IMG/VR virus record: IMGVR_UViG_2541047705_000011
From: a virus
Lineage: Duplodnaviria; Heunggongvirae; Uroviricota; Caudoviricetes
Direction: 5' to 3' (one strand)
Length of the DNA stretch: 42,469 nt
Shown: one piece after another, positions 3,369-37,273 of the stretch
Layout of the letters: each line of letters begins with the position of its first letter
How positions within the stretch are numbered: position 1 is the stretch's first letter
Program-made: the position numbers and the translations under genes
Notes under the pieces: generated by a model
What the model saw: only the letters and a program-made list of their open reading frames with translations
Database searches by the model: none
Told to the model about the DNA's origin: nothing

Positions 3369-3395
3369 CCCGCAATATTTTGCGGGCTTTTTTTT
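3369..3395 (+). terminator. Hairpin plus T8, canonical only in plus orientation, at tailspike 3' end
   Basis: CCCGCAA-TATT-TTGCGGG then C and T8; the T-run overlaps the tailspike stop codon; no plus-strand CDS upstream. Confidence 0.45.
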
Positions 3396-6300
3396 AACGT
3401 TCTTCCAGAGACTGAACCCGCTCTTTTATCTTATCCATTTCTCTGCGCTGCCATGCTGCCTCGATATAGAATAAGAGATCAGGTCTGACCCCCCATCTAG
3501 ATCCTGCTGGCGTTATTTCAACGCGCTCAATGATGTCTTCCATTACCATCACTGGATTATCATCCTCATCAACAATGATGCTCCCGTCATTATCAGTCAG
3601 CGGCATTTCCCTTTGGCCAGTAATGACGTCATCATATACTGCGGGATAATCGTCATAGCAAAGAAAGGCATAGCGGCATGTTGTGCTTTCTTCTTCCATG
3701 AGTCCGTGAGAAATAAGAACATCACGAAGTTGCTGCGCGATTACACCATGATGTATCCTCGCCCCTTCTTCCCCCTTTATAGCGACAGCGTTCAGCCATT
3801 TATAAGCGATATACCTGACGTCACCCCAGGCATCCAGCAATGCTTCGTCAGGAGAGACCGGCTCTGTCTTTAATGTTCCGTCACTGGTAACCACAGGATT
3901 GGAGCCAAGATAAACTGTCGAGAACCTGTTTCCCGGACCACCAAGAGCATTTACATTATCAAGATAAGGTTTAACATCTCCGTTCTCAAAAAGATGTTCG
4001 AGTGCGTTATATACCGCGCGACGTGGAGTACTGCTTCCGGAACCATGCAACGTTATCATTGCACCATCTGCTGAAGACGTTGTTTCACCTCCGCTAACGA
4101 TTAATCTCTGAGCGGTAACATCATCAGACGGTACTTTCTTCGCAATAATGGCGTAATTACCCTCAAGTTTGACTTCCGCGCGAACTTGTCCTGATGTACC
4201 TGCATGGACAGTCAGTGACTGGACGGCAACATCATCTGTGAAATCAACGGGTACAGGAACCGTCCTCACGCCTGACGTCGACATAAAAGTAGGAAGCGTT
4301 CTGTTAGGAGTGGCTCCGTAGACAAAATCCCTTGAAACAAATTCTTCCTGTTTAATTTTCACCCTGAAACAATACAAATCAGCCGGGTGACCATCGTGAA
4401 CATAAGGATATTTTCTGTTGTTATCCCCTATGCTCCATGGGTTTAGAAAGTCTTCCCCACCGAAAATGTAGTACAGCCAGTTGTCTTTGATACAAACTGA
4501 ACCAACACCAACCGCAGAGTTAACTATTCCGCCCTGATAAATCTGATCAGTAACATTAACCCACTCTACATTATCCAGACTCCACTCATTGACGTTAACT
4601 CTGGTCATAAATGTTCTTGGATAATTTCCTGCATAACGGTTATCAGGTTCTCCTCCTTCCCACTCACCAAATGCGCGCTCACTGCCAAAAATAATCAGCT
4701 CATCGCCAACTTTGGCAAAAGGAAGGTTTGAGTGATGAACATTATTTGGGAAGCGAAGAGAATTCCATGATGTACCTAAATCAGAGCTTCTGTGCAATGA
4801 ACTACCGGGTTGAGTACTTAATGTCCCCCTGGTCGTCAGATACAGAATGCCATCATAATATTTTACACATGGCTCAGATGCATTCGCCTCATATTCTGCA
4901 GGTATGCGTCTGCGAACAAAGCTACCAGGAGAACCGAAAGCATCAGAGAAATAGAGTATCCCAAGCTCGCGTGGACCAATATCACCATTATGGTAGCCAA
5001 CAGCAAAACTGTTATCGCTAATCGTCGCAAAACTGTGAATCTCAGTAACAGGAGTGCTTCCGTCAACAAAAGAAGGAATAGTTCCAAGACTGGTTTTTCT
5101 CCATGGTGACGAGTGAAATGATGTACCAAAACTCCAGTATCTACCCTCGTTATTCTGATCCACATCCTGGGTATTTTGCGTCGTAACTGTAAAAGTATTT
5201 TTATCAATAACAGTAGTCACCGTCATATTCCCGGTAACACCTGTAACACCAGAGTTTGAGAAGTTGACAAAATCACCAGCAAATAATCCGTGATCAGTAA
5301 TGCGAATATAAGCGACTTGCTGATTTGCTGCTTTCGTTATACCACCATAAACGCGAAGGCTGCGACTCATTGGGCGATCCCACAACTCTGCAACCTGCAG
5401 TTTATTTCCGCTCACGGTCCGCGTCTCAATTACAGCAAAAAGGCGATTTCTGACAACCCCCATACTCATGCAGTGATAGTTAACTGTGGGATAGTTTTCA
5501 TGTAAATCTGTAAGCCATTCCGGCGTTGTCCAGGTCTTCCCGTCATCTCCTGAGCGAACCCATGCAACATGGAGGTTATTTACACCATGGCGGTCTCCAG
5601 CCATAAAAGGCGCATAGATGACATTGTCATATACAAACGTTTTATCCTGCGTCCAGGCGTTGTACCACGGTGTATCTGTAATTTTAAATAACTCTCCCTG
5701 GATAAAATCTTCAGAAGCATAAAAAAGAGGCTGGCCCGGTATTCTCTCAAATAAAAAACGAGCATTTTTAAATCGACTGACATCCGGAAGAGTTGATACT
5801 TTAAAAGTAAGCCCTAATCCGTCAATTTTATAACCTGGAGATGAGGCTTCAAGGCACGCGCTTATTGCAGTGGAATCGTCATTTATACCATCACCAACAG
5901 CTCCAAAATCTTTGGGGCTAATAGCATCACGCATTTTATCCTGGAACGTTCGGTACACAGCCCCAGAACCATACTGAATAAACCAACCAAAACCACCAAC
6001 AACCCCGGCGATTGCAGCATCGACATAATTACGCATTGAGCGATTATTTACAGCGTCCTGCTCAAATGATGGATCTGCAAGGTTAGAAATTTTGTTTTGC
6101 TTTGCATCGTAATATTTTGCAAGCAAAGATGGTTTCATCAATGCACGTCTGAACCACCCAAAACATTGCTGGATCAGCATCGTCAGGTAGTCAAAGGCAT
6201 CTTCATGCACTTCGGGGAAAAATTTTCCCTGATTGCGAAGGTCTGTCTCCTGCACTACATCAAGCACACGATCTATCGTAATTCGCCATCCAGTAGCAAG

Positions 6301-6513
6301 CGGAGACGGAAGAACCACAGAACCGCCACTATAAGTGCCCGCCCCAGTTACCGTATAACCGGTATCCAGAACCAATTCTGTTACGTTCCCGTTCAGGTCA
6401 GACACCTGAACAACCAGGTCTGATTTTCTGAAAATTCGAAAAGTATACGGAAACGATGTCGTAACGCCGTTACCGGTGTATTCGTTGTGGTCAACTTCGG
6501 TTGAGACCGTCAT
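3394..6513 (-). CDS. Tailspike, endosialidase-like (endo-N-acetylneuraminidase) with C-terminal intramolecular chaperone
   Basis: 1039 aa; N-terminus has T7 tail-fibre-like pattern YxGxG..F..F..LVV; two Asp-boxes SGDDGKTW and SSDLGTSW; C-terminal SDGTLK and HHGVIAQQLRDV resemble the autocleaving chaperone of endosialidases. Confidence 0.7.
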   Translation of the reverse strand: MTVSTEVDHNEYTGNGVTTSFPYTFRIFRKSDLVVQVSDLNGNVTELVLDTGYTVTGAGTYSGGSVVLPSPLATGWRITIDRVLDVVQETDLRNQGKFFPEVHEDAFDYLTMLIQQCFGWFRRALMKPSLLAKYYDAKQNKISNLADPSFEQDAVNNRSMRNYVDAAIAGVVGGFGWFIQYGSGAVYRTFQDKMRDAISPKDFGAVGDGINDDSTAISACLEASSPGYKIDGLGLTFKVSTLPDVSRFKNARFLFERIPGQPLFYASEDFIQGELFKITDTPWYNAWTQDKTFVYDNVIYAPFMAGDRHGVNNLHVAWVRSGDDGKTWTTPEWLTDLHENYPTVNYHCMSMGVVRNRLFAVIETRTVSGNKLQVAELWDRPMSRSLRVYGGITKAANQQVAYIRITDHGLFAGDFVNFSNSGVTGVTGNMTVTTVIDKNTFTVTTQNTQDVDQNNEGRYWSFGTSFHSSPWRKTSLGTIPSFVDGSTPVTEIHSFATISDNSFAVGYHNGDIGPRELGILYFSDAFGSPGSFVRRRIPAEYEANASEPCVKYYDGILYLTTRGTLSTQPGSSLHRSSDLGTSWNSLRFPNNVHHSNLPFAKVGDELIIFGSERAFGEWEGGEPDNRYAGNYPRTFMTRVNVNEWSLDNVEWVNVTDQIYQGGIVNSAVGVGSVCIKDNWLYYIFGGEDFLNPWSIGDNNRKYPYVHDGHPADLYCFRVKIKQEEFVSRDFVYGATPNRTLPTFMSTSGVRTVPVPVDFTDDVAVQSLTVHAGTSGQVRAEVKLEGNYAIIAKKVPSDDVTAQRLIVSGGETTSSADGAMITLHGSGSSTPRRAVYNALEHLFENGDVKPYLDNVNALGGPGNRFSTVYLGSNPVVTSDGTLKTEPVSPDEALLDAWGDVRYIAYKWLNAVAIKGEEGARIHHGVIAQQLRDVLISHGLMEEESTTCRYAFLCYDDYPAVYDDVITGQREMPLTDNDGSIIVDEDDNPVMVMEDIIERVEITPAGSRWGVRPDLLFYIEAAWQRREMDKIKERVQSLEER

Positions 6514-6616: not shown

Positions 6617-6633
6617 ATTACCTTTCAGGTAAT
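6617..6633. promoter_or_regulatory. Operator-like palindrome ATTACC-TTTCA-GGTAAT (perfect)
   Basis: Perfect 6-bp inverted arms, 5-bp spacer; between tailspike start and the LexA-box gene. Confidence 0.6.
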
Positions 6634-7736: not shown

Positions 7737-7753
7737 ATTACCTTAAAGGTAAT
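7737..7753. promoter_or_regulatory. Operator-like palindrome ATTACC-TTAAA-GGTAAT (perfect)
   Basis: 20 nt upstream of the 7717 start codon; possible -35 TTGATC 17 nt from TACCTT on minus strand. Confidence 0.6.
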
Positions 7754-7864: not shown

Positions 7865-7958
7865 TGTGCCATAGTAATCGGGCACTGGCAAAATCCAGTG
7901 CCGGGATTGGTCTCCCGGATTACTACAGAGGCACATATGCCGCATAAGCGGTTTTTTT
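7865..7958 (+). other. Candidate structured RNA/leader: three-way junction fold followed by short hairpin and T7 run
   Basis: Nested complementarity TGTGCC/GGCACA, GTAATC/GATTAC, GGCACTGG/CCAGTGCC, GGGA/TCCC; then CCGC-ATAA-GCGG plus TTTTTTT; about 155 nt upstream of BRO start. Confidence 0.3.
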
Positions 7959-8112
7959 ATGTGTAAAGCGCACCTATTCTATGGTGGGCTGTGTGGGGGC
8001 ACCGAAAGGTGCGCCGGGTTCCTTTGTAGCCGGTAAGACCAACTCTGCACAGTTCACCACCATCTGATTGGTCTCAGCGGTGGTGATTAACCTAACTACA
8101 AAGGTGATCGCT

Positions 8113-8805
8113 ATGAATACCAAACCTTCCATCTTTTCCTTTGAGTCATCCTGCCAGATCCGTATGTTCATGATTGACGGAGAACCTTGGTTTGTCACCA
8201 AAGATGTGTGCAATGCTTTGAATATTGATGTTACACAAGCGAGAAAACTTGATAAAAAAGGCTGGAACAAAAAGGGGCTGTATTCAATACAGACCCCTGG
8301 TGGAATACAAGAACTATCCATCGTTTCAGAATCAGGTCTCTACATCCTTATTCTGCGTTGCAAAGAGGCAATGACTGAGGGAACGAGAGCATTCAGATTT
8401 CTTGAATGGGTTACAGGTGAGGTTCTTCCTCAGATCCGCCGCACCGGAAGTTACATTAAAAACTCGCTCCCGCAGGAAGAACGCATAAAGATGGTTGCCG
8501 ACCAGGTAGCCAACGCCACGGCGTCAGCAGTAATGCAGGCGATGAAGATAGAGAACAAAACCTACAGTGCCCCACTGAAGCCCGGCTACCGTAGCCTGAT
8601 TCATTCGCCGTCTGGTGTTCTCGGCCTGACGGAGAACTCACTGCTGATGAATCTGCTGAACCAGTTACAGGACGACGGGCACGACGTATCGGGCGCGGCG
8701 GCGGAGCTGACCACCATGTTCTGCTACATCGTCGGTGTGAGCAAATGCCTGCGTGATATCCAGACCCACGCGGAGTACATCAACGACAAGGCAGGGTTCT
8801 TCTGA
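8113..8805 (+). CDS. BRO-N domain antirepressor
   Basis: BRO-N motif FSFESSCQIRMFMIDGEPWFVTKDVCNAL; RBS AAGGTGA; start trimmed to ATG 8113; C-terminal domain homologous to the 6709-6966 protein. Confidence 0.75.
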   Translation: MNTKPSIFSFESSCQIRMFMIDGEPWFVTKDVCNALNIDVTQARKLDKKGWNKKGLYSIQTPGGIQELSIVSESGLYILILRCKEAMTEGTRAFRFLEWVTGEVLPQIRRTGSYIKNSLPQEERIKMVADQVANATASAVMQAMKIENKTYSAPLKPGYRSLIHSPSGVLGLTENSLLMNLLNQLQDDGHDVSGAAAELTTMFCYIVGVSKCLRDIQTHAEYINDKAGFF

Positions 8806-9865: not shown

Positions 9866-9866
9866 T

Positions 9867-9878
9867 GTGACATGTCAC
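9867..9878. repeat. Perfect 12-bp palindrome GTGACATGTCAC (copy 1 of 3)
   Basis: Overlaps lipoprotein stop codon; identical copies at 28357-28368 and 30808-30819. Confidence 0.8.
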
Positions 9879-10255
9879 GCAACGCAATTATTACCGCGCC
9901 ATGTAACATTTTTAATAATCTTATCAGCACCAAACTCAACGTAAACAGAGCAACTGAAATGGAGTGTATAACCGCCATCAGTTGTTGCGTATGTGTTTGA
10001 ATATATAGTATTACCAATTAGATTAGACGTAGTATTATACGTTGTGGTTTGTGGTACGTTATAACTACCAGAGCTTGAGTAAACATACACTCTGTTTCCA
10101 TCTGGAGATGTAAGCTCTCCCTGAGGATACCCCCACTGCTGAACCATTGCGTCTATACTCTGCCCGCGCCACGTAAGCATATTTCTTTCAAACTGTGCAA
10201 CTGACTGGCATCCAACGAGAAGCATAAATCCAAAAATCAAAAATACTTTTCTCAT
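9875..10255 (-). CDS. Lipoprotein (126 aa), candidate superinfection-exclusion/moron protein
   Basis: Start MRKVFLIFGFMLLVGC (lipobox); RBS AGGGG; Thr/Ser/Tyr/Asn-rich mature part; IS1 lies 66 bp upstream of its start. Confidence 0.6.
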   Translation of the reverse strand: MRKVFLIFGFMLLVGCQSVAQFERNMLTWRGQSIDAMVQQWGYPQGELTSPDGNRVYVYSSSGSYNVPQTTTYNTTSNLIGNTIYSNTYATTDGGYTLHFSCSVYVEFGADKIIKNVTWRGNNCVA

Positions 10256-24338: not shown

Positions 24339-25040
24339 TTATTTGCCATAGAGCACTTCGGCCGCACTACGCTGGCCTTCATTACCACCGGTGACCATGC
24401 CATCTTCAGACATCGCCTTTCCGATTTTCACGAACGTTTTGACCAGATCAGGGTGATTACCCAGCCCGGTGGTGTTCAGATATTCTTTGAGTTCAGGTGT
24501 CCCGAACTGGTCAAGCGCACGCTGTGCGGCGCTAAGGTTAGAAATCAACTTGTCGCCACCGATTTCTTTGTCGGCTTTTACATCCGCAGCCCACTGCTCG
24601 GTTGTTTTCTGCCAGGCTTCTGCCTGGCGCTGCTGAACACCTGCCAGAATCTTCGGATAAGCATCAACCAGCTTTTGCGCTTGCTCGTTGGTCAGGTTTA
24701 GTTCTCGCGCCACCGGCTCGAATTCCTTCAATGCTTCTGTATCCAGCTCTACGCCTTCGGCAGCCTGAAACTCGTACTTTTCAGGCGCACCCTCTGGTTT
24801 ATCGCCGTCCTTTTTTTCATCCTGCTTATCGTTTTCAGGCTTTTTGTCATCAGCAGGTTTATCGCCATCAGCAACAGGTTGTGGCTTATCACCTTCCTGT
24901 TGTGATGGATCACCAACTGGAGCAGGGTTATCACCTGCAGGCGCTGACGGTTCTGACGCAGCCGGAGCTGCTCCACCATCGACTGGTTGCTCATTGCAAA
25001 GACGGCGATACAGCAAACGCTCAAATAAATTCATGATCAC
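24339..25040 (-). CDS. Scaffolding protein
   Basis: Acidic, Pro/Asp/Lys-rich low-complexity N-terminal half; between portal and capsid. Confidence 0.6.
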   Translation of the reverse strand: MIMNLFERLLYRRLCNEQPVDGGAAPAASEPSAPAGDNPAPVGDPSQQEGDKPQPVADGDKPADDKKPENDKQDEKKDGDKPEGAPEKYEFQAAEGVELDTEALKEFEPVARELNLTNEQAQKLVDAYPKILAGVQQRQAEAWQKTTEQWAADVKADKEIGGDKLISNLSAAQRALDQFGTPELKEYLNTTGLGNHPDLVKTFVKIGKAMSEDGMVTGGNEGQRSAAEVLYGK

Positions 25041-25333
25041 TCCTGTTCACTGGCCTCTTTGGCCATCTTCAAATACTGTTCAGGGCAATGCGCCATAACG
25101 CGCTGAAACAGTTCCAGCGCCAGATTGCGTTGCCCCTCATTAAATGCCATTGCCATAGCATCCATCGGTGAGATAGCGGAAAACACACGGCCTTTCTCCA
25201 GCACCGACCAGACAACGCGACGCCCCTGTTCACTGCTCATGACAAAGCGAATGTCATCAATTTCACGCTGTGCCATGTCACGTTGCTTACGGGCGTTTTC
25301 TTCTTTCAGTTGATCGTCTTCATAATCTGTCAT
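25037..25333 (-). CDS. Small head-assembly-module protein (98 aa)
   Basis: ORF track; overlaps portal stop and scaffold start. Confidence 0.45.
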   Translation of the reverse strand: MTDYEDDQLKEENARKQRDMAQREIDDIRFVMSSEQGRRVVWSVLEKGRVFSAISPMDAMAMAFNEGQRNLALELFQRVMAHCPEQYLKMAKEASEQE

Positions 25334-27009
25334 TGTGATAGCCCACCCTGACCACTAACTGCATTCGCCATAGCTGACAACACACTCGGATCCGAAGTTT
25401 TAGCTTCGCTTAGCGTCTTGGCCCCCTGTGCCGCCGCCATCCCCATCGCCATCATTTGTTGCTGCTGTTGTTGCTGTGCCCGTTGCTGGCGAGCCTGCTC
25501 AACCTGTTCCTGCGGAACAATGACGGTTGGAGACACTCCGGACATATCAGCGAATGCATCGATCGCCTGATCAACGTTGAGTTTGTCGAGAGCTTCTGGT
25601 TTCGCTTGCGCAAGTTGACCAATGAAGTTAACCGTGGACGCCAGACTGGACAGGCCGATAGACTTCTGCGCCTGAGCCATGACGGAAATGTATTCGACCT
25701 TCAGGGGCATACCTTCCATCGCGTCAGGCGGTGGCGGCAGCATGTTTTTACGCACCATCATCGAGAAAGCGCGGTCAATGAGAGGATTAAGACATTCGTC
25801 GTTCAGACGCTCCAGAACCGGCCCCAACATCAGAAGTTTTTCTTCTTTCATTTCGATCACCGCTTCAACAGGCATCGAGCGGGTATTGATGTTCTGCAAC
25901 ATCATGAACAGATCGACAAAGTAGGCGCTGTTAATGATTTGACGGGTGTCCTGAATGTCTGCCACCAAATCTGCTGTACTGGGGTTAACCAGATAAGCAG
26001 GCCTGAAACCATCCTGACCAGTAATCTGATCGATATACGTGATGTCGCCAGGAAGAAGGGAGGCACGCTGATTCTTGAGGGAAGTCGGAGCAACCATCGG
26101 CGGATTGGTGGCTTTATCAATCAACTGCGACTTGCGCTTCTGGAGAAGCTGCAATGCCTTAACAGGTCCAAGCGCCAGCATACCCGGGCATGATGATCCA
26201 TAAACATCTTCGCCGTTAACTTCCCAGCGCGGAGCCATAATTGGAAACTCATCGAATCCGGACTCACGCAACAACTTGTCGTTATCGCCACCAACCTCGT
26301 AATAAACCGATTTGAATGGCTTGTTCTTGCTATCCAGCTTCGATGTATCGCGGTCAATGTTCGGGTAAACCGAATGCATCACTTCAATCCACTTCTCGTA
26401 GGTGCCGCTTTCCCACATGCTTTTTACGGATTCGCTGACGTTATTTAGTCCGAACTCCTGAACAAGCTGACGAACAGTCATAGAGAACTTGCGAAAACAG
26501 GTGTCCACACTGCCACGAGGTGAGTTAGCCAGGTAGTAACTTCCTATCGGGAATGGCATTGTACGAATGATGTCCTCGTCATCCTCCAGCACCGCCATTG
26601 CGCCAGTGCTGTATGTGCCGAGGCTTCCGTATAACTGCGGCAGCGACTGATAGAGATTCGACTTATTGAACATATCGTTCATGCGGTTCTGCACCGCCTC
26701 AAGCCACAACTTAACAGGGCCATAATCCATCATTTCAGGATCTGGCGTAGCCAGGCGAAACCACGGACGCGCGGGGCTTGTGATGCCTGACATCATGCCG
26801 CTGGCGAGAGTGCGCGCCGCCATAGTCCCGGTCGAATCAATAATGCGTGTATTGCGTCGATCGTTACGGTTGACCTCAGAAGTCAGAAAGCGGGAACCAC
26901 GCGGGTTGATGTAATCACTCAACTCGCGCCAGTGCGGCTCGAACGACTGACGCTCGCTTTCAAGTTGTGCGAACTGTTTGTTCAATCGCTCTTTAGTTGT
27001 TTCCGCCAT
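25330..27009 (-). CDS. Portal protein
   Basis: 559 aa; Gln-rich C-terminal tail (QQRAQQQQQQQMMAMGMAAAQ) like podovirus portals; RBS GGAG. Confidence 0.75.
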   Translation of the reverse strand: MAETTKERLNKQFAQLESERQSFEPHWRELSDYINPRGSRFLTSEVNRNDRRNTRIIDSTGTMAARTLASGMMSGITSPARPWFRLATPDPEMMDYGPVKLWLEAVQNRMNDMFNKSNLYQSLPQLYGSLGTYSTGAMAVLEDDEDIIRTMPFPIGSYYLANSPRGSVDTCFRKFSMTVRQLVQEFGLNNVSESVKSMWESGTYEKWIEVMHSVYPNIDRDTSKLDSKNKPFKSVYYEVGGDNDKLLRESGFDEFPIMAPRWEVNGEDVYGSSCPGMLALGPVKALQLLQKRKSQLIDKATNPPMVAPTSLKNQRASLLPGDITYIDQITGQDGFRPAYLVNPSTADLVADIQDTRQIINSAYFVDLFMMLQNINTRSMPVEAVIEMKEEKLLMLGPVLERLNDECLNPLIDRAFSMMVRKNMLPPPPDAMEGMPLKVEYISVMAQAQKSIGLSSLASTVNFIGQLAQAKPEALDKLNVDQAIDAFADMSGVSPTVIVPQEQVEQARQQRAQQQQQQQMMAMGMAAAQGAKTLSEAKTSDPSVLSAMANAVSGQGGLSQ

Positions 27010-27023
27010 TTCAATGACTCCGG

Positions 27024-27230
27024 TTACTGACCAAGCAGTGTTTTACCGCTGGTATTAGCGGTTGATGTGTCGCCCTGAGAACCGGTAAGCAGCGTAGAAC
27101 TACGACCAGCAGCAGCGCGACGGCGACGAGTTTCTTCGTCGCGGGCATCAACAACGGCGGCATCCTGCTCCTGTGGTGCTGCCTGAACTTCTGGTGTTGC
27201 AGGCACTGACGGTGAGCTACCCATGCACAT
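27024..27230 (-). CDS. Small low-complexity protein upstream of portal (68 aa)
   Basis: RBS GGAGTCATTGAT identical in context to the portal RBS. Confidence 0.4.
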   Translation of the reverse strand: MCMGSSPSVPATPEVQAAPQEQDAAVVDARDEETRRRRAAAGRSSTLLTGSQGDTSTANTSGKTLLGQ

Positions 27231-27298: not shown

Positions 27299-27327
27299 TT
27301 GACATTTAACGCACAAATTATTACCTT
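27299..27327 (+). promoter_or_regulatory. Sigma70-like promoter directed toward tRNA-Arg
   Basis: -35 TTGACA, 17-bp spacer, -10 TACCTT, overlapped by an operator-like palindrome. Confidence 0.5.
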
Positions 27328-27336
27328 TCAGGTAAG
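27320..27336. promoter_or_regulatory. Operator-like palindrome ATTACC-TTTCA-GGTAAG
   Basis: 11/12 arm match; overlaps the -10 of the promoter above. Confidence 0.55.
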
Positions 27337-27657
27337 CAAAGGGTTCATTCCGGTTATTAACCTGACTGGCTTGTCGTTAAATTGAACAGGTGGAGTGAGC
27401 TTTTATTTTGAGCAGTACGGCGTATGGCACATGCGCCGATAGCGGTCTGGATACGTTTAAGGGGCACCCTCCCTTGCTCGGGCAAACGAACCAGGTAGCC
27501 GGAATGTGCAAGTCGAGCGGTTTTATTCCGCGCACGGGGATTCACCATCCCGGCGATTCGGTGTGACGCCTCGGAAGAGACGAGGGTACAACGATGAGAG
27601 CATTTATGGAGCCGCGACAAAGTGTGGCGCCTTAACAGGCTAAGTGCTCTCAGCGTT

Positions 27658-27734
27658 GTGGCATTAGCTCAGTCGGACAGAGCAACCGCCTTCTAAGCGG
27701 TTGGTCGCAGGTTCGAATCCTGCATGCCACGCCA
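27658..27734 (+). tRNA. Phage-encoded tRNA-Arg (anticodon UCU)
   Basis: 77-nt cloverleaf: acceptor GTGGCAT/ATGCCAC, D-stem GCTC/GAGC, anticodon stem ACCGC/GCGGT with loop CTTCTAA, T-arm GCAGG-TTCGAAT-CCTGC, discriminator G, encoded CCA. Confidence 0.9.
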
Positions 27735-27777
27735 GAATCACGCCTAAGGACCGTGATGCCAGAAGTTCCAGGGGCTT

Positions 27778-27819
27778 GGCGGTGATGGTTTCCCTTGAAG
27801 GACTATCACCGCCCTTTTT
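27778..27819 (+). terminator. Terminator after tRNA
   Basis: 9-bp stem GGCGGTGAT/ATCACCGCC with 18-nt loop, then CTTTTT. Confidence 0.55.
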
Positions 27820-27897
27820 ACAGCAGGACGCCATTGCGATGACTTCATGCTGTAAACCAGTACAGCCACGGAAGGCATAACTCATTGCTTCCAGTTC

Positions 27898-27921
27898 GCC
27901 CGGTTCGCCGGGCATTTTTTT
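27898..27921 (+). terminator. Strong hairpin plus T7 immediately upstream of moron RBS (terminator or attenuator)
   Basis: GCCCGG-TTCG-CCGGGC, A, then TTTTTTT; RBS AAGGTGAG begins at the next base. Confidence 0.6.
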
Positions 27922-27932
27922 AAGGTGAGATC

Positions 27933-28352
27933 ATGAAAACAATTGATATGTTGGCTAAGTATCTAAATGAATGGCCATTAAAATATTCTCGTATCGTTCA
28001 GGCTGAAGACTGCGTTTTTTATGGCGTTTTTGCTGGTAATGAAATGCATTACGAAGTAATTCAGAGTGAGGGACTGGCCGGGTTAACTCTTAGCGAAGAC
28101 CATGGTACTAGCGTTACGTTCCATGACTGGATAACAGCACAACGTTCTGAAATGGAAAAAGGCGATGTGTTTGATATTTCTCGCGCTGTTTACGCTAAAG
28201 CAAAAAGTGATAATGATTACATGAGCGAACACTTATACAACATGAAGTTACAATGCCTGCATGCGGCGCTTATTCAGAATGGGTACTTCGATAAAACAAG
28301 TGCCATCAATATTGCGGAAGCCATCAACACTGGATTTAATGCCATTAAGTAA
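27933..28352 (+). CDS. Hypothetical moron protein (139 aa), no recognisable family
   Basis: ORF track; only plus-strand gene inside the minus-strand late region; RBS AAGGTGAG; terminator downstream. Confidence 0.6.
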   Translation: MKTIDMLAKYLNEWPLKYSRIVQAEDCVFYGVFAGNEMHYEVIQSEGLAGLTLSEDHGTSVTFHDWITAQRSEMEKGDVFDISRAVYAKAKSDNDYMSEHLYNMKLQCLHAALIQNGYFDKTSAINIAEAINTGFNAIK

Positions 28353-28356
28353 CACC

Positions 28357-28368
28357 GTGACATGTCAC
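28357..28368. repeat. Perfect 12-bp palindrome GTGACATGTCAC (copy 2 of 3)
   Basis: 5 nt after moron stop codon, before its terminator. Confidence 0.8.
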
Positions 28369-28372
28369 AAAC

Positions 28373-28399
28373 AGCCAGCCGATGAGCTGGCTTTGTTTT
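28373..28399 (+). terminator. Rho-independent terminator for moron gene
   Basis: AGCCAGC-loop-GCTGGCT then TTGTTTT. Confidence 0.65.
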
Positions 28400-28442: not shown

Positions 28443-29918
28443 TTAAGCATAGGGATCGTAATCTGTGATGGCCTTGCCTTGCTGGTTCTGCTGCCCGGGA
28501 ATTCGCAGACGCTTCGACACAGGGAACGCAAACGTCAGCAGTAGCGCATCGCCTTTACCCGGCGAACGCCCAAGCCGCTCCTTGATATCCTCCTTCGGTT
28601 CGATAACGATTTTACCGTCCACGCGAACTTTGTACTCTGCCGCCGACAGGTCGTCTGCAGTTTCCTGGTCATCCAGCATGCCGCCCAGCCTCAGCCATGT
28701 CTTACATGAGTTGAACATCTCCCCACGCTTGTTAAGCATCTGCGGGTCAGTGGACGCACCGCCGAACGGAACAAGTTGCCATGTGCGCCCCCAGCCGTCA
28801 CCGATTGACTTCAGACCAGTTCCGTAACCGAAGTCGATGAACACTGCGTCAGCCTGGTACTGGTCTTCAAAGTCAGCGATACGCTTCGCCATAATCAGAT
28901 CGTCAGTGGTCTTGTTGCCAGTCCATAGCACCTTACTGTGCAGCCCCTGCCGCAGGTATATCACAGCGTCATCAACGCCGGAGTACGCCGGGTCAACGCC
29001 GATTATCACCGGAGCATGTGCAACCTGCGCAGCGGTTACCACCCGTTTCATTGCCTCGTCAGTAAGACCGGTAGGGATAAACTGCAATTCAGATGCATCA
29101 GGGAATATGCCGCGCACACGGATTTTAACGAAGTCGCTGTCTTCCCCGTAGTCATCAACCCATTTCTGCAACTGCTGTTTGTTAGTGCCTTCCACCGTCC
29201 GGCTGTCAATCTGCGCACACTTCCAGCGGTGTTTGTACTTGCGGAAACATTCACGGAAACGCCCGGTGTTACGCGTCGGGTTCCCGAACGCCACCCAGAT
29301 GATTTCGGTGTCTTCGTCCGTAAGCGCACCCTCAGCAACTTCCCACACCAGATCCGCAATGTTCGACGCTTCATCGAATACCACGATGATGCGTTTGCGC
29401 TCGTTGTGTAGTCCGGCGAATGCCTCAGTGTTGTGCTCAGACCAGGGGATTGCGTCAGCTCGCCACCGCTTGTCGTGCCCAGGATCATTGCTGTACATCG
29501 CAGTAGCGGTACAGGTAAACCAGTCTTTCGTGATAGCAAGGTTCGACCACTTGATAATTTCCGGCCAGGTCTTCGTTCGTAGCTGGTTGTCGGTGTTGGC
29601 GGTCACCACGACCTTACAATCCTCGCAAGTGGACATGCCCCAGTTGATCAGCATTGAGATGAATGCGGATTTACCAATACCGTGACCAGAAGCGCGTGCC
29701 AGCATAAGCGGCTGATAGCGCGTCTCTGGATTCTGCAGGTGATCACGTATCTCTCGGAACGCATCAGCCTGCCACTGACGTGGGCCGGTAGCATGTGCCA
29801 GTTCAGTACCCTCTTCCCCCCACGGGAACGCATAGAGGGCATAGCCAAGCGGATCGTGAGTGAACCCTGCAATATCCTCGATTAACTGCTCTTCAGGAGA
29901 TAACGCTGTATCTGTCAC
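28443..29918 (-). CDS. Terminase large subunit
   Basis: 491 aa; Walker A ASGHGIGKS near N-terminus; nuclease-type C-terminal half; follows small subunit. Confidence 0.85.
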   Translation of the reverse strand: MTDTALSPEEQLIEDIAGFTHDPLGYALYAFPWGEEGTELAHATGPRQWQADAFREIRDHLQNPETRYQPLMLARASGHGIGKSAFISMLINWGMSTCEDCKVVVTANTDNQLRTKTWPEIIKWSNLAITKDWFTCTATAMYSNDPGHDKRWRADAIPWSEHNTEAFAGLHNERKRIIVVFDEASNIADLVWEVAEGALTDEDTEIIWVAFGNPTRNTGRFRECFRKYKHRWKCAQIDSRTVEGTNKQQLQKWVDDYGEDSDFVKIRVRGIFPDASELQFIPTGLTDEAMKRVVTAAQVAHAPVIIGVDPAYSGVDDAVIYLRQGLHSKVLWTGNKTTDDLIMAKRIADFEDQYQADAVFIDFGYGTGLKSIGDGWGRTWQLVPFGGASTDPQMLNKRGEMFNSCKTWLRLGGMLDDQETADDLSAAEYKVRVDGKIVIEPKEDIKERLGRSPGKGDALLLTFAFPVSKRLRIPGQQNQQGKAITDYDPYA

Positions 29919-30511
29919 TGATTGCCATCCTGACGTTCTTTCAGTCTCTTCCTGGCTGCCGCTATGCGATCAGCAATTGTCACATTCACATTAACATCCA
30001 GGCGTTCTTTGAATGCGTTGACGTCGACGTGCTTACCAATCAGTTCGAGGTTCTTCACCTTGTCAGGCCATTTAATTTTTTTGAGGATTGTCTCTATCGA
30101 ATCCTCGTTCATGTTCATGATGGTCGATGACAGATCAAAGCCGCTAAGCGTAGTGCGCCAGATTTTCGGCCACTCTCGGATTGGCTTAAGGCTACCATCG
30201 TCGTTGAGGATGTCGATCACGTCCATCTGGTCGATCTCCACCAGGCGCATGAGAACGTAATCAGCACTGACGCGCATTCGTTTGTTGCGCTCCTCCATCA
30301 ACTCGGCAATCCGTTTCTGAATGCGTTCATCGCGCATCATGACACTGGCTTTAACTGCCGCTGTATTTGGGGAGAATCCTGCATTAATCGCTGCCTGAGT
30401 CTGGTTTTCAGGCGTTTTGATGTATGACTGGCAATAAGCCTCCTGCATTGCTGTTAGTGGCTTAAATTGCGTTGATTTGCGTTTATAGGTTTTAGGTTCA
30501 GCAGGCATCAT
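29915..30511 (-). CDS. Terminase small subunit
   Basis: Start trimmed to ATG 30511 (MMPAEPKTYKRK); track ORF starts at TTG 30589 with no RBS; overlaps large-subunit start. Confidence 0.65.
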   Translation of the reverse strand: MMPAEPKTYKRKSTQFKPLTAMQEAYCQSYIKTPENQTQAAINAGFSPNTAAVKASVMMRDERIQKRIAELMEERNKRMRVSADYVLMRLVEIDQMDVIDILNDDGSLKPIREWPKIWRTTLSGFDLSSTIMNMNEDSIETILKKIKWPDKVKNLELIGKHVDVNAFKERLDVNVNVTIADRIAAARKRLKERQDGNQ

Positions 30512-30518
30512 AACCACC

Positions 30519-30547
30519 GTGGTAATAGTTACCGTTGTGGTAATAGT
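30519..30547 (-). repeat. Direct repeats GTGGTAATAGT x2 (18-bp period) upstream of terminase small subunit
   Basis: Copies at 30519-30529 and 30537-30547; contain the GGTAAT half-site; lie between an upstream terminator and the TerS start. Confidence 0.5.
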
Positions 30548-30553
30548 ACCATG

Positions 30554-30580
30554 CAAAATAAAGCCGCCATAGTTGGCGGC
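30554..30580 (-). terminator. Rho-independent terminator preceding the late operon
   Basis: GCCGCCA-ACTA-TGGCGGC then TTTATTTTG on minus strand, just after the 30586 stop. Confidence 0.6.
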
Positions 30581-30585
30581 AGTAT

Positions 30586-30798
30586 TCAAAGTCCATCAAA
30601 TTCATCGTAAAAACTCTCGTCAAGATACCCTTCCCATTTACCGCGAATGAAAATTACATCCTCGCCGCAAGGGTGCTGACTGTCGATAACTATATCCCTC
30701 CTGACGCAACCATACTTATGCATGAGAAATTTAACCTCTTTCGGAAAATTTGCTGAGTTATCTCTCATATCTTCAAGGTCGTAGCGTATTTTTGGCAT
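30586..30798 (-). CDS. Hypothetical small protein (70 aa)
   Basis: Start trimmed to ATG 30798 with RBS GAAGGTG; the track start at 30819 is the ATG inside the palindrome. Confidence 0.45.
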   Translation of the reverse strand: MPKIRYDLEDMRDNSANFPKEVKFLMHKYGCVRRDIVIDSQHPCGEDVIFIRGKWEGYLDESFYDEFDGL

Positions 30799-30807
30799 AA
30801 CACCTTC

Positions 30808-30819
30808 GTGACATGTCAC
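30808..30819. repeat. Perfect 12-bp palindrome GTGACATGTCAC (copy 3 of 3)
   Basis: Overlaps stop codon of the 30816-31157 gene. Confidence 0.8.
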
Positions 30820-31157
30820 ACTATTAATTTCGTTTCATGCCAGCCTTTGGTCACCCAGCATTGCGAGTCACCATTACACGGGCATGAATTAACTGGAACT
30901 CTCTCGCCGCACTTACCGCAACGTTTTCTGCTGATCGATTTTATACGCCCGCGCACGCGTGCATCATCCTGGCGGATCAGTAACGCTATATACTCACCAA
31001 ATTCGTAAGGTGCACGCCCGGGGCGACGCGTGGCGCAGTTCCGCTCCAGCATTTCAATTTCCTGAGCATCAAGCACAATTTCCAGCTTACGCACACCAGA
31101 TGCAGCTTGTCTGGCTCTCTGAGCGGCTTTGCGCTCTGCTGCTGATTTAGCCATCAA
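30816..31157 (-). CDS. Small basic protein with N-terminal RHH-like segment and C-terminal Cys cluster (zinc-ribbon-like)
   Basis: 113 aa; AERKAAQRARQAASGVRKLEIVLDAQEIEMLE then CGKCGERVPVNSCPCNGDSQC. Confidence 0.5.
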   Translation of the reverse strand: MMAKSAAERKAAQRARQAASGVRKLEIVLDAQEIEMLERNCATRRPGRAPYEFGEYIALLIRQDDARVRGRIKSISRKRCGKCGERVPVNSCPCNGDSQCWVTKGWHETKLIV

Positions 31158-36434: not shown

Positions 36435-36499
36435 TTCACCCATAAGGTAACAAAAATCAAGGATAGTTACCTATGAGGTGCATTTACCTGTTGGGTAAT
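36435..36499. promoter_or_regulatory. Immunity-region operator cluster (three sites)
   Basis: 36435-36451 TTCACC-CATAA-GGTAAC; 36466-36482 GTTACC-TATGA-GGTGCA; 36483-36499 TTTACC-TGTTG-GGTAAT; candidate Cro-side promoter -35 TTGTTA / -10 TATTAT on minus strand. Confidence 0.6.
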
Positions 36500-36553: not shown

Positions 36554-37138
36554 ATGAAAAGTATCCAGGACGTCCGCAGGCAAAATCTCAACGACTTGAT
36601 CGACCGTGAATTCAATGGTGTTCAGACGCGGATGGCAGAAAAACTTGGAACTCAGGCAAATCTGGTAAACCGCTGGGCTCTTGGCAAGAAGGTTATCGGC
36701 GACCAGGTTGCGCGAAAAATTGAAGCTGCCGCCAATAAACCCCGTAACTGGCTTGATATCGATCGCTCGCTTTCTCAGGAAGGTTTTCAGCCTGTCGGCC
36801 CAAGCGACATTGGTCAGCTGGCGGCTCACAACCTGGAACGCTGGATGAGCGAAAGCCGCGACCTTTCAACACAGGGAAAACTTCACCGCGCATCCGGCGT
36901 CGCCCAGGTGACAATCAGCCGCCTGTTAAACAATGAGGTCAGCGTTTCCATTTCCACCCTGGAGAATGTTGCATCCGCATTCGGGCGTCACGGATATGAA
37001 CTACTGATTCACCCGCACGACCCTGCGACTATCAACTATGACCGCTCGCGCTACGCATTGTTACCCGAAACCGAGAAAGCAAAGATCGAAAGTTACATTG
37101 AATTTGTCATCAACCAGAACGAAAAAAACAAACAATAA
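36554..37138 (+). CDS. CI-like repressor with two HTH domains and no recognisable S24 peptidase domain
   Basis: 194 aa; HTH segments TRMAEKLGTQANLVNRW and LHRASGVAQVTISRLLN; no Ser-Lys autocleavage module seen; weak SD. Confidence 0.65.
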   Translation: MKSIQDVRRQNLNDLIDREFNGVQTRMAEKLGTQANLVNRWALGKKVIGDQVARKIEAAANKPRNWLDIDRSLSQEGFQPVGPSDIGQLAAHNLERWMSESRDLSTQGKLHRASGVAQVTISRLLNNEVSVSISTLENVASAFGRHGYELLIHPHDPATINYDRSRYALLPETEKAKIESYIEFVINQNEKNKQ

Positions 37139-37194: not shown

Positions 37195-37211
37195 ATTACC
37201 TAATGGGTAAT
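37195..37211. promoter_or_regulatory. Operator-like palindrome ATTACC-TAATG-GGTAAT (perfect)
   Basis: 19 nt upstream of the early promoter -35. Confidence 0.6.
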
Positions 37212-37229
37212 TTTTTTAACTCATATCTA

Positions 37230-37258
37230 TTGACATCAAACCAGATACGCATAATTAT
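37230..37258 (+). promoter_or_regulatory. Early promoter for the plus-strand early operon
   Basis: -35 TTGACA, 17-bp spacer, -10 AATTAT; flanked by operator-like palindromes. Confidence 0.55.
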
Positions 37259-37273
37259 TACCTCAACGGTAAC
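37257..37273. promoter_or_regulatory. Operator-like palindrome ATTACC-TCAAC-GGTAAC
   Basis: Overlaps -10/+1 of the early promoter. Confidence 0.55.

Follow-up and report, generated by a model that had tools for sequence, protein, structure and literature searches.

In IMG/VR virus record IMGVR_UViG_2541047705_000011, a 42,469-nucleotide (nt) stretch of tailed phage DNA referred to here as the window, a 139-amino-acid (aa) open reading frame (ORF) lies on the plus strand at 27933-28352. This ORF, the cargo gene, is a genuine accessory gene in a hypervariable slot of the epsilon15/phiV10-like (Uetakevirus) temperate podophages. At least eight unrelated cargos replace it in phages whose large terminase subunit (TerL) is at least 99% identical, and empty slots were found too. 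The slot is preceded by two terminator hairpins, T1 and T2, and a Shine-Dalgarno (SD) sequence, and it is followed by a third terminator, T3. We favour, with moderate confidence, a reading in which the cargo belongs to a single plus-strand operon controlled by the phage repressor Rep, is expressed by read-through of T1 and T2, and is exchanged for other ORFs behind a platform of T2 and SD by recombination in the flanks.

An accessory gene exchanged between fixed flanks

The slot was surveyed in 80 IMG/VR loci with TerL at least 99% identical, and in Escherichia coli genomes. Gp49-like genes occupied it at 37 loci, and PHROG 4846, the family of the window's cargo, at about 23. The other contents were related proteins with transmembrane (TM) and coiled-coil segments (246-303 aa; phrog_4780/13369/35327), a 110-113-aa protein, a 115-aa repeat protein, a Tad2-like protein (locus L009; PF11195, E=3e-24) and a 61-aa protein consisting of the C-terminal module of PHROG 4846 alone (L010, 1795-1980). 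Two-gene versions occurred as well, as did "empty" slots with an 8-codon remnant.

The junctions of the exchanged segment were sharp. Its left end was either immediately behind the U-run of T2, as in the L008 and L012 types, or behind the SD that the cargos share; its right end was the stop codon, beyond which CACCGTGACATGTCAC and T3 come. An alignment (A1) of the window with phiV10, PAS61 and HEMP4 showed near-identity on both sides of the ORF, from the tRNA to the SD (T2 included) and from the stop codon past T3 into terL. Exactly between start and stop codons, phiV10 carries an unrelated 123-aa gene (Sf6 gp66 / "Gp49 family", phrog_322). This gene (phiV10 gp03) and the epsilon15 ORF ABK13674 (N4 gp49 / Sf6 gp66-like) share with the window's cargo the slot, the strand, an upstream tRNA or leader, T2 with its U7, the SD and T3, but the protein is unrelated (phrog_322 vs phrog_4846) and the swap runs from start codon to stop codon. 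The GC content of the cargo was 0.40-0.44, compared with 0.54-0.57 in the flanks. A literature search on the phiV10 slot returned nothing relevant.

The ratio of non-synonymous to synonymous substitution rates (dN/dS) was 0.17-0.41 against the PAS61, HEMP4 and Leclercia orthologues, so the cargo ORF is a real gene. The plus-strand unit that ends with it was present in 515 of 5426 complete E. coli genomes, 59 of the 5426 having a PHROG 4846 cargo. Across the slot, the prophage of E. coli 04-00955 (NZ_CP035498) was 99.3% identical to the window.

The palindrome at the right junction, CGTGACATGTCACA, had three perfect copies in the window (28356-28369, 9866-9879 and 30807-30820), with 0.39 expected. 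Two copies are arranged as stop codon, palindrome and terminator, and one lies just before an SD and ATG on the minus strand. The palindrome may serve as a site of recombination or of protein binding.

Organisation of the locus

On the plus strand, the unit reads in the order promoter with Rep operator, leader, structured RNA, tRNA-Arg(UCU), T1, spacer, T2, SD, ORF, palindrome and T3:

27299-27327, plus strand: candidate sigma70 promoter; -35 TTGACA (27299-27304), 17-nt spacer, -10 TACCTT (27322-27327)
27321-27335, no strand: probable Rep operator, TTACCT-N3-AGGTAA; palindrome overlapping the -10 and the start site
27417-27588, plus strand: conserved structured RNA core; seven helices including a pseudoknot candidate, with covariation
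27589-27658, plus strand: module closed by a 14-bp stem, CAACGATGAGAGCA ... TGCTCTCAGCGTTG; read from the sequence
27658-27734, plus strand: tRNA-Arg, anticodon UCU, encoded CCA (ARAGORN; Rfam RF00005)
27778-27819, plus strand: predicted intrinsic terminator T1; 14-bp hairpin (27778-27813) and U5 (terminator scan)
27816-27892, plus strand: inter-terminator spacer with the stem-loops SL-A (27816-27856) and SL-B (27870-27892), from folding
27831-27842, plus strand: invariant loop of SL-A, CCATTGCGATGA
27898-27921, plus strand: predicted intrinsic terminator or attenuator T2; GCCCGG-UUCG-CCGGGC (27898-27913), A, U7 (27915-27921)
27922-27929, plus strand: SD, AAGGTGAG, common to most alternative cargos
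27933-28352, plus strand: cargo ORF, 139 aa, PHROG 4846; ATG start; N-domain 1-76, disordered linker, C-terminal helical hairpin 93-137
28356-28369, no strand: perfect palindrome at the right cargo junction, CGTGACATGTCACA
28373-28399, plus strand: terminator T3; 7-bp stem and UUUGUUUU, back-to-back with the end of terL (28443)

Identity to the Escherichia phages HEMP4, PAS61 and phiV10 (genus Uetakevirus, epsilon15 group) was 94-99% in this region, and phiV10, PAS61, HEMP4 and epsilon15 share its layout. The late genes lie on the minus strand. Pfam searches identified the small terminase subunit TerS (29915-30589, PF03592) and TerL (28443-29918); the portal gene (25330-27009, PF12236), a Bbp19-like gene (25037-25333) and a 68-aa gp3-like ORF (27024-27230) are also on the minus strand. 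Between about 11.2 and 35.8 kb, all other ORFs of at least 90 aa that correspond to phage genes have this orientation.

A preliminary description of this DNA had pointed to the 139-aa plus-strand gene, to a UUCG-loop hairpin with seven Ts abutting its ribosome-binding site, and to two terminators about 75 nt apart. The ORF is present with an ATG start, the U-run of T2 ends at 27921 and is followed at 27922 by the SD AAGGTGAG, ATC and ATG, and 78 nt separate the tail of T1 from the stem of T2. The placement between terminase and portal holds broadly; more exactly, the gene lies between terL and the 68-aa gp3-like gene that precedes the portal gene. It was also called the only forward gene of the late region, which is incorrect, because the tRNA-Arg(UCU) detected by ARAGORN and Rfam (27658-27734) sits on the same strand.

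Terminators around the cargo gene

T2 combines six G-C pairs, a UUCG loop, one A and U7, the sequence features of an intrinsic terminator, and its hairpin had a fold energy of -12.7 kcal/mol. For T1 the fold energy was -20 to -31 kcal/mol (z=-2.6). The number of hits in a loose terminator scan was not beyond chance (4, with 3.2 +/- 2.0 expected). Relatives showed compensatory changes in the stems, by which T2 and T3 are real features. Two alleles of the T2 stem were found, GCCCGG/CCGGGC at 71 loci and GCCCAC/GTGGGC at 9 loci, that differ by a double compensatory change. The second allele, GCCCAC-UUCG-GUGGGC, occurs in Leclercia (L004), epsilon15 and seven more loci; both partners of two neighbouring pairs differ, and the UUCG and the U7 are kept. 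The T3 stem in Leclercia is changed from GCCAGC/GCUGGC to GCCCGC/GCGGGC, again in a compensatory way. By its sequence, T2 is predicted to terminate transcription.

Two of the hairpins have been annotated in public records. In the GenBank record of epsilon15, the T2 hairpin is a rho-independent terminator before the cargo coding sequence, with 12 nt between the annotated features. In the phiV10 record, a putative rho-independent terminator is entered at the site equivalent to T3, with the strand given as that of the terminase genes.

Read on the minus strand, the T1 and T2 hairpins lack a U-run behind them, and therefore neither should stop the late operon. T1, T2 and T3 would limit antisense transcription into terL and leave the late operon unblocked, because only plus-strand transcription is terminated. 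As the tRNA-Arg lies upstream on the same strand, T1 is best seen as the terminator of the RNA/tRNA gene, not as one half of a stand-alone pair.

Sequence variation was compared across 86 near-identical loci. Substitutions affected 56% of the columns in the T1 and T2 stem-loops, compared with 13-24% in adjacent non-coding DNA. The T2 variants were mostly rare and weakened the stem, from -12.7 to -10.5, -10, -6.5, -6.1, -4.0 and -1.9 kcal/mol. The U7 was essentially invariant, with substitutions in one of the eight columns of A and U7. This pattern of weak stems and a constant U-run fits the tuning of an attenuator, without proving it. No pairing that would compete with T2 as an antiterminator was seen in a search that was not exhaustive; both minimum free energy and centroid folds of 27814-27921 gave three independent hairpins, with T2 isolated.

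Among prophages with TerL at least 99% identical, the T1 and T2 stem-loops were the most polymorphic non-coding elements of the plus-strand unit. T2 mutations that were rare and in most cases weakened the stem occurred at L035, L053, L055, L083, L025, L064, L038, L022 and L026. Among the natural weak forms are the allele GCCAAG and a deletion of the 5' arm.

Candidate promoter and probable repressor operator

The only credible promoter for the cargo ORF, a candidate read from the sequence, is TTGACA-17-TACCTT at 27299-27327, 630 nt upstream. Leclercia (L004), E. coli (L005) and epsilon15 have retained the -35 element, TACC(T/C)T and the distance of 17 nt between them, but not the sequence of the spacer. 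It was overlooked by the consensus scan because the -10 matches at only three of six positions. Between T1 and the ORF, no sigma70-like promoter was found by scan or by eye. The sequence TTTACA-17-TGACTT was considered there and rejected, with a -10 matching at only two of six positions.

The -10 is embedded in a perfect palindrome, TTACCT-TTC-AGGTAA (27321-27335). This motif had 18 matches in the window with up to two mismatches (0.84 expected), three of them perfect. Matches lie also at 6618-6632 and 7738-7752 and in two clusters (36436-36498 and 37196-37272) that flank an ORF at 36554-37138. The ORF is homologous to SPC32H Rep, the repressor of an epsilon15-like phage (PDB 5D50, E=4e-42). 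In the epsilon15 record (Kropinski), the equivalent site is annotated "repressor; lysogeny". The TTACCT-N3-AGGTAA palindrome is thus probably the Rep operator. Since a perfect copy covers the -10, the unit is predicted to be silent in the lysogen. On this sequence evidence, the whole plus-strand unit appears to be repressed by Rep in the lysogen and would fire on infection or induction.

Elsewhere in the window, tandem Rfam matches to isrK (74.7 bits) and to C4 antisense RNA (78.6 bits) were found at 7882-8064 on the plus strand, upstream of a 245-aa ORF (8068-8805). Operator-like palindromes lie beside them at 7738 and 7831. The region resembles the antirepressor control region of P1 immI type.

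The cargo protein

The preliminary description saw no recognisable family in the protein. This stands for Pfam, NCBIfam and PADLOC, but PHROG 4846 includes the protein over its full length (E=6.5e-89; residues 1-139 align with positions 1-139 of the 140 in the profile). We found 97 homologues, all "hypothetical" and from Enterobacterales wherever the source names an organism. Pfam (E up to 1), NCBIfam, PADLOC (0 families, E up to 0.1) and a PDB sequence search gave no matches. The Pfam search gave no match to PF11195/Tad2 either. A search of the family profile against 1.84 billion representatives returned 28 matches, all of the same small family except for one repetitive chance match. Fold and profile searches gave no functional lead.

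The protein is predicted to be 15.8 kDa, with an isoelectric point of 5.1 and no TM segments. In an AlphaFold2 model (pLDDT 83.6), residues 1-76 form an alpha/beta N-domain, which a disordered linker connects to a helical hairpin at the C terminus (93-137). Compared with HEMP4, the gene is a mosaic: the N-terminal half is nearly identical (dN 0.014, dS 0) and the C-terminal third highly diverged (dS about 1). The C-terminal module was joined to other N-domains in P0094 and P0096, and one copy lies in another podophage between scaffold-like and major capsid genes (L226, 5001-5573). For this module (window 28200-28352), two divergent alleles were seen that had recombined within the gene.

The cargo protein is small, acidic and soluble and has two domains; binding to another protein is its most likely mode of action. 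With low confidence, we suggest a role in counter-defence or host takeover, considering the probable early expression, the small acidic nature of the protein and the Tad2-like allele found in the same slot. Tad2 (PF11195) is an anti-Thoeris sponge, and the points of likeness are the Tad2-like gene at this position elsewhere (L009), the small, acidic and soluble cargo protein and the probably early timing of the unit. The 139-aa protein shows neither sequence nor fold similarity to Tad2 or the known anti-defence families.

Expression of the cargo gene

In the mechanism that we propose, the plus-strand unit would run antisense to the late operon, with the cargo ORF as its last element. Polymerases would start at the 27299-27327 promoter, read through T1 and T2 and reach the promoterless cargo. 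The level of the cargo would be attenuated, and transcription would probably take place only without Rep, i.e. on infection or induction. T2 and the SD would form a fixed expression platform, behind which unrelated ORFs are swapped by recombination between related phages. With no promoter found in the stretch from T1 to the ORF, the evidence is best read as transcription that starts at the repressor-controlled promoter upstream and passes through the terminators. Such expression would make the cargo an early or induction-time accessory gene, and not a classic moron expressed in the lysogen. The layout of the unit, its conservation, the swapping of cassettes, the selection on the coding sequence and the operator counts are observations; use of the promoter, control by Rep, read-through and the role of the protein are inferred from them.

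Several points weigh against this mechanism. Read-through would be very low behind two strong terminators in a row unless it is assisted, and the weakened T2 variants could reflect relaxed constraint instead of tuning. The -10 of the promoter is weak by consensus (three of six positions), and the operator at 27321-27335 could instead serve a divergent gp3/portal promoter. The spacer between T1 and T2 may hold a promoter for a phage-specific factor. The proposed role of the protein draws on a slot position beside a Tad2-like allele, with no fold, family or PADLOC match to accompany it.

A structured RNA upstream of the tRNA

The core RNA at 27417-27588 had no Rfam match, even at E<10, and a literature search by its sequence returned nothing relevant; it appears to be undescribed. 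An alignment of 39 diverse homologues (A4) supported a structure of 31 pairs in seven helices, including the pseudoknot candidate. Pairing was present in 98.3% of the cells, compared with 25-43% when the partners were slid. Ten pairs had compensatory changes, and the covariation score was 0.219, compared with at most 0.04. The G-U pairs fall on the plus strand.

Homologous cores were found in the lambdoid phages cdtI, 1720a-02, Stx2a_WGPS2 and mEp390, in a Stenotrophomonas phage, in P1, P7 and D6 (between trnI and ban), in Klebsiella phage SopranoGao and in other Uetakeviruses (copies at L095 1501-1671, L094 1501-1678, L100-L103 and L105-L224). The context of the core was recorded by an exact 19-mer scan of IMG/VR, which gave at least 120 loci. 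Among the matches listed, 61 of 120 came right after a lambdoid repressor gene in the same orientation, 37 of 120 were in the Uetakevirus slot and 11 of 120 were upstream of a P1-type ban. In the lambdoid copies, the promoter ahead of the core carries operator half-sites of its own phage. Such a promoter is therefore PL-like, which would put the RNA at the nutL/putL position.

Downstream of the core lie modules closed by a long stem (ACAAC...AGAGCATT / GTGCTCT...GTTGT). The 14-bp module stem of the window ends at the first base of the tRNA, and a like stem closes variable inserts in the lambdoid, P1-like and other Uetakevirus copies. Modules were seen also at L098 1370-1640, L102 1290-1560 and L004 5400-5790, some with T-arm-like inserts. 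In homologous loci the modules are followed by a tRNA-like unit, GTGGTGAAT-GCGCAGGCTGATGCGCG-...-GCCGGAGATCAGCACCGGC-CACCACAAC, whose place is taken in the window by a genuine tRNA-Arg(UCU) (Rfam RF00005, 73.3 bits; annotated as tRNA-Arg in related genomes). The tailspike gene (3394-6513) has 16 AGA and 8 AGG codons. A function of this tRNA for the cargo gene was ruled out, as the cargo ORF has no AGA or AGG codon.

A strong T1-like terminator lies 240-650 nt after the core in most homologous loci. Most of the core is deleted in epsilon15 (L093, 1790-1900), together with the modules, the tRNA and the 5' arm of T1; SL-A, SL-B, T2 and a cargo gene are retained.

The position of the core, just downstream of a repressor-controlled early promoter and at the nutL/putL position in the 61 of 120 listed loci, raises the question of whether it acts in cis like put of HK022 and carries polymerase through T1 and T2, with efficient cargo expression whenever the promoter fires. 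This would account for a promoterless gene behind two terminators, the structure of the core is strongly supported, and in most loci it is followed first by a strong intrinsic terminator and next by protein genes. As in the HK022 put and lambda nut leaders, the RNA comes right after the early promoter and ahead of terminators and genes. We nevertheless consider antitermination by the core unlikely. At 150-180 nt (about 170 nt) and with about seven helices, the core is unlike the 70-nt two-stem put, and it had no detectable sequence similarity to HK022 22-29 kb, a stretch in which the location of putL is unconfirmed. Moreover, the P1 core precedes ban without an intervening terminator, epsilon15 keeps T2 and a cargo gene though most of its core is lost, and the core could equally be a trans-acting RNA or a processing element linked to the tRNA and tRNA-like modules.

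A wider form of this idea is that the cargo is the 3' passenger of an undescribed class of repressor-controlled structured-RNA operons, in which a put-like core makes T2 a conditional gate and not a leak. We hold it at a similarly low probability. The part of it that concerns the operon itself, namely that a core of about 170 nt with tRNA or tRNA-like modules forms an operon common to Uetakeviruses, many lambdoid phages (at the PL/nutL position) and P1-like phages, is likewise put forward only tentatively.

The spacer between the terminators

The segment 27814-27921 folds into SL-A, SL-B and T2. The spacer sequence is conserved across E. coli, Salmonella phage epsilon15 and Leclercia, and SL-A presents an invariant 12-nt loop, CCAUUGCGAUGA. 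In PAS61-type phages, a natural deletion of 33 nt removes SL-B. As the length variants are not multiples of three, the spacer is non-coding. An 83-aa ORF on the minus strand at 27664-27915 (phiV10p04) lies opposite the tRNA and the spacer, and indels in relatives break its frame; it can be dismissed as a gene with near certainty.

The preliminary description left two options for this segment, read-through into the gene or a separate small RNA (sRNA) of about 75 nt. Read-through is the better supported of the two: no sigma70-like promoter was found between T1 and the ORF, and T2, U7 and SD form a conserved platform that unrelated cargos share. Because T2 abuts an SD that is conserved across many cargos, the product of read-through would matter.

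A functional sRNA (about 27820-27921) that ends at T2, arises by T1 read-through and/or processing of the tRNA trailer, and leaves the cargo as a minor by-product of leakage is, in our judgement, improbable. It does have points in its favour. The spacer is conserved across genera, it has the invariant loop, and a terminal GC hairpin with U7 is typical of sRNA 3' ends. sRNAs derived from tRNA 3' trailers are an established class, as exemplified by 3'ETS-leuZ of E. coli, and offer a precedent for a structured, conserved and terminator-ended segment downstream of a tRNA. Unlike 3'ETS-leuZ, the segment is separated from the tRNA by T1, and no conserved target was found, the portal gene being the candidate. 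The SL-A loop was complementary at 11 of 13 positions to the portal translation initiation region in the window. We rejected it as a portal seed, since the pairing is lost in epsilon15, Leclercia and Klebsiella relatives despite the kept loop and was probably due to chance. Further points against an sRNA are that no promoter of its own was found, that PAS61-type phages lack SL-B, and that T2 abuts the SD used by many cargos. The best Rfam match of the T1-T2 segment was RyhB with 18 bits (gathering threshold 55) and the others reached at most 18 bits (thresholds 50-55), which we regard as noise from terminator look-alikes.

Relation to morons and processed mRNAs

Morons in the sense of Juhala and Hendrix are extra genes with their own promoter and terminator between conserved genes of lambdoid and HK97-type phages. 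The preliminary description used this term, and it applies in so far as the cargo is an inserted accessory gene that has a deviant GC content, is swapped in relatives and has its own terminator, T3. Like a moron, the cargo is present in some relatives only and lies at a gene boundary. Unlike a moron, it has no promoter of its own, the nearest one being covered by the Rep operator, and it comes last, after two terminators, in an RNA/tRNA operon whose promoter has a repressor operator.

We consider it quite unlikely that the cargo is a classic moron, i.e. a gene for lysogenic conversion or superinfection exclusion whose constitutive expression in the prophage, driven by a leaky promoter or by one of its own, protects the lysogen. 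The orientation opposed to the late genes, the low GC content and the terminator would suit such a gene, and other alleles of the slot are TM and coiled-coil proteins resembling exclusion or Abi proteins. However, no promoter is adjacent and the upstream one has a perfect Rep operator; the protein is soluble and acidic without a PADLOC match, and a Tad2-like counter-defence allele occupies the same slot.

It is very unlikely that T2 mainly serves as 5' stabiliser and translational enhancer (hairpin and U-rich ribosome standby site) of an mRNA processed by RNase P, E or III. In favour of this role, the hairpin and U7 immediately precede the SD, long stems of a processing type and a tRNA are present in the upstream RNA, and the epsilon15 record has an RNase III site annotated in this intergenic region. 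Against it, a hairpin with U7 is a textbook terminator, and a constant U7 beside an often weakened stem fits termination tuning better. Attenuation and mRNA stabilisation can coexist in T2.

Biological significance

The cargo adds a fairly ordinary member to the exchangeable accessory genes known from phages, here in a well-known group, and the upstream structured RNA operon is the more novel object. The succession of T2, SD, ORF, palindrome and T3 constitutes a clean natural expression cassette, carried by prophages in about 10% of the complete E. coli genomes. PHROG 4846 and the other alleles of the slot are good candidates for counter-defence and host-takeover screens. The apparent direct control by Rep would reclassify the unit from a lysogenic-conversion gene to an early accessory gene. 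If it does control read-through, the core RNA would be a new phage antitermination or leader element.

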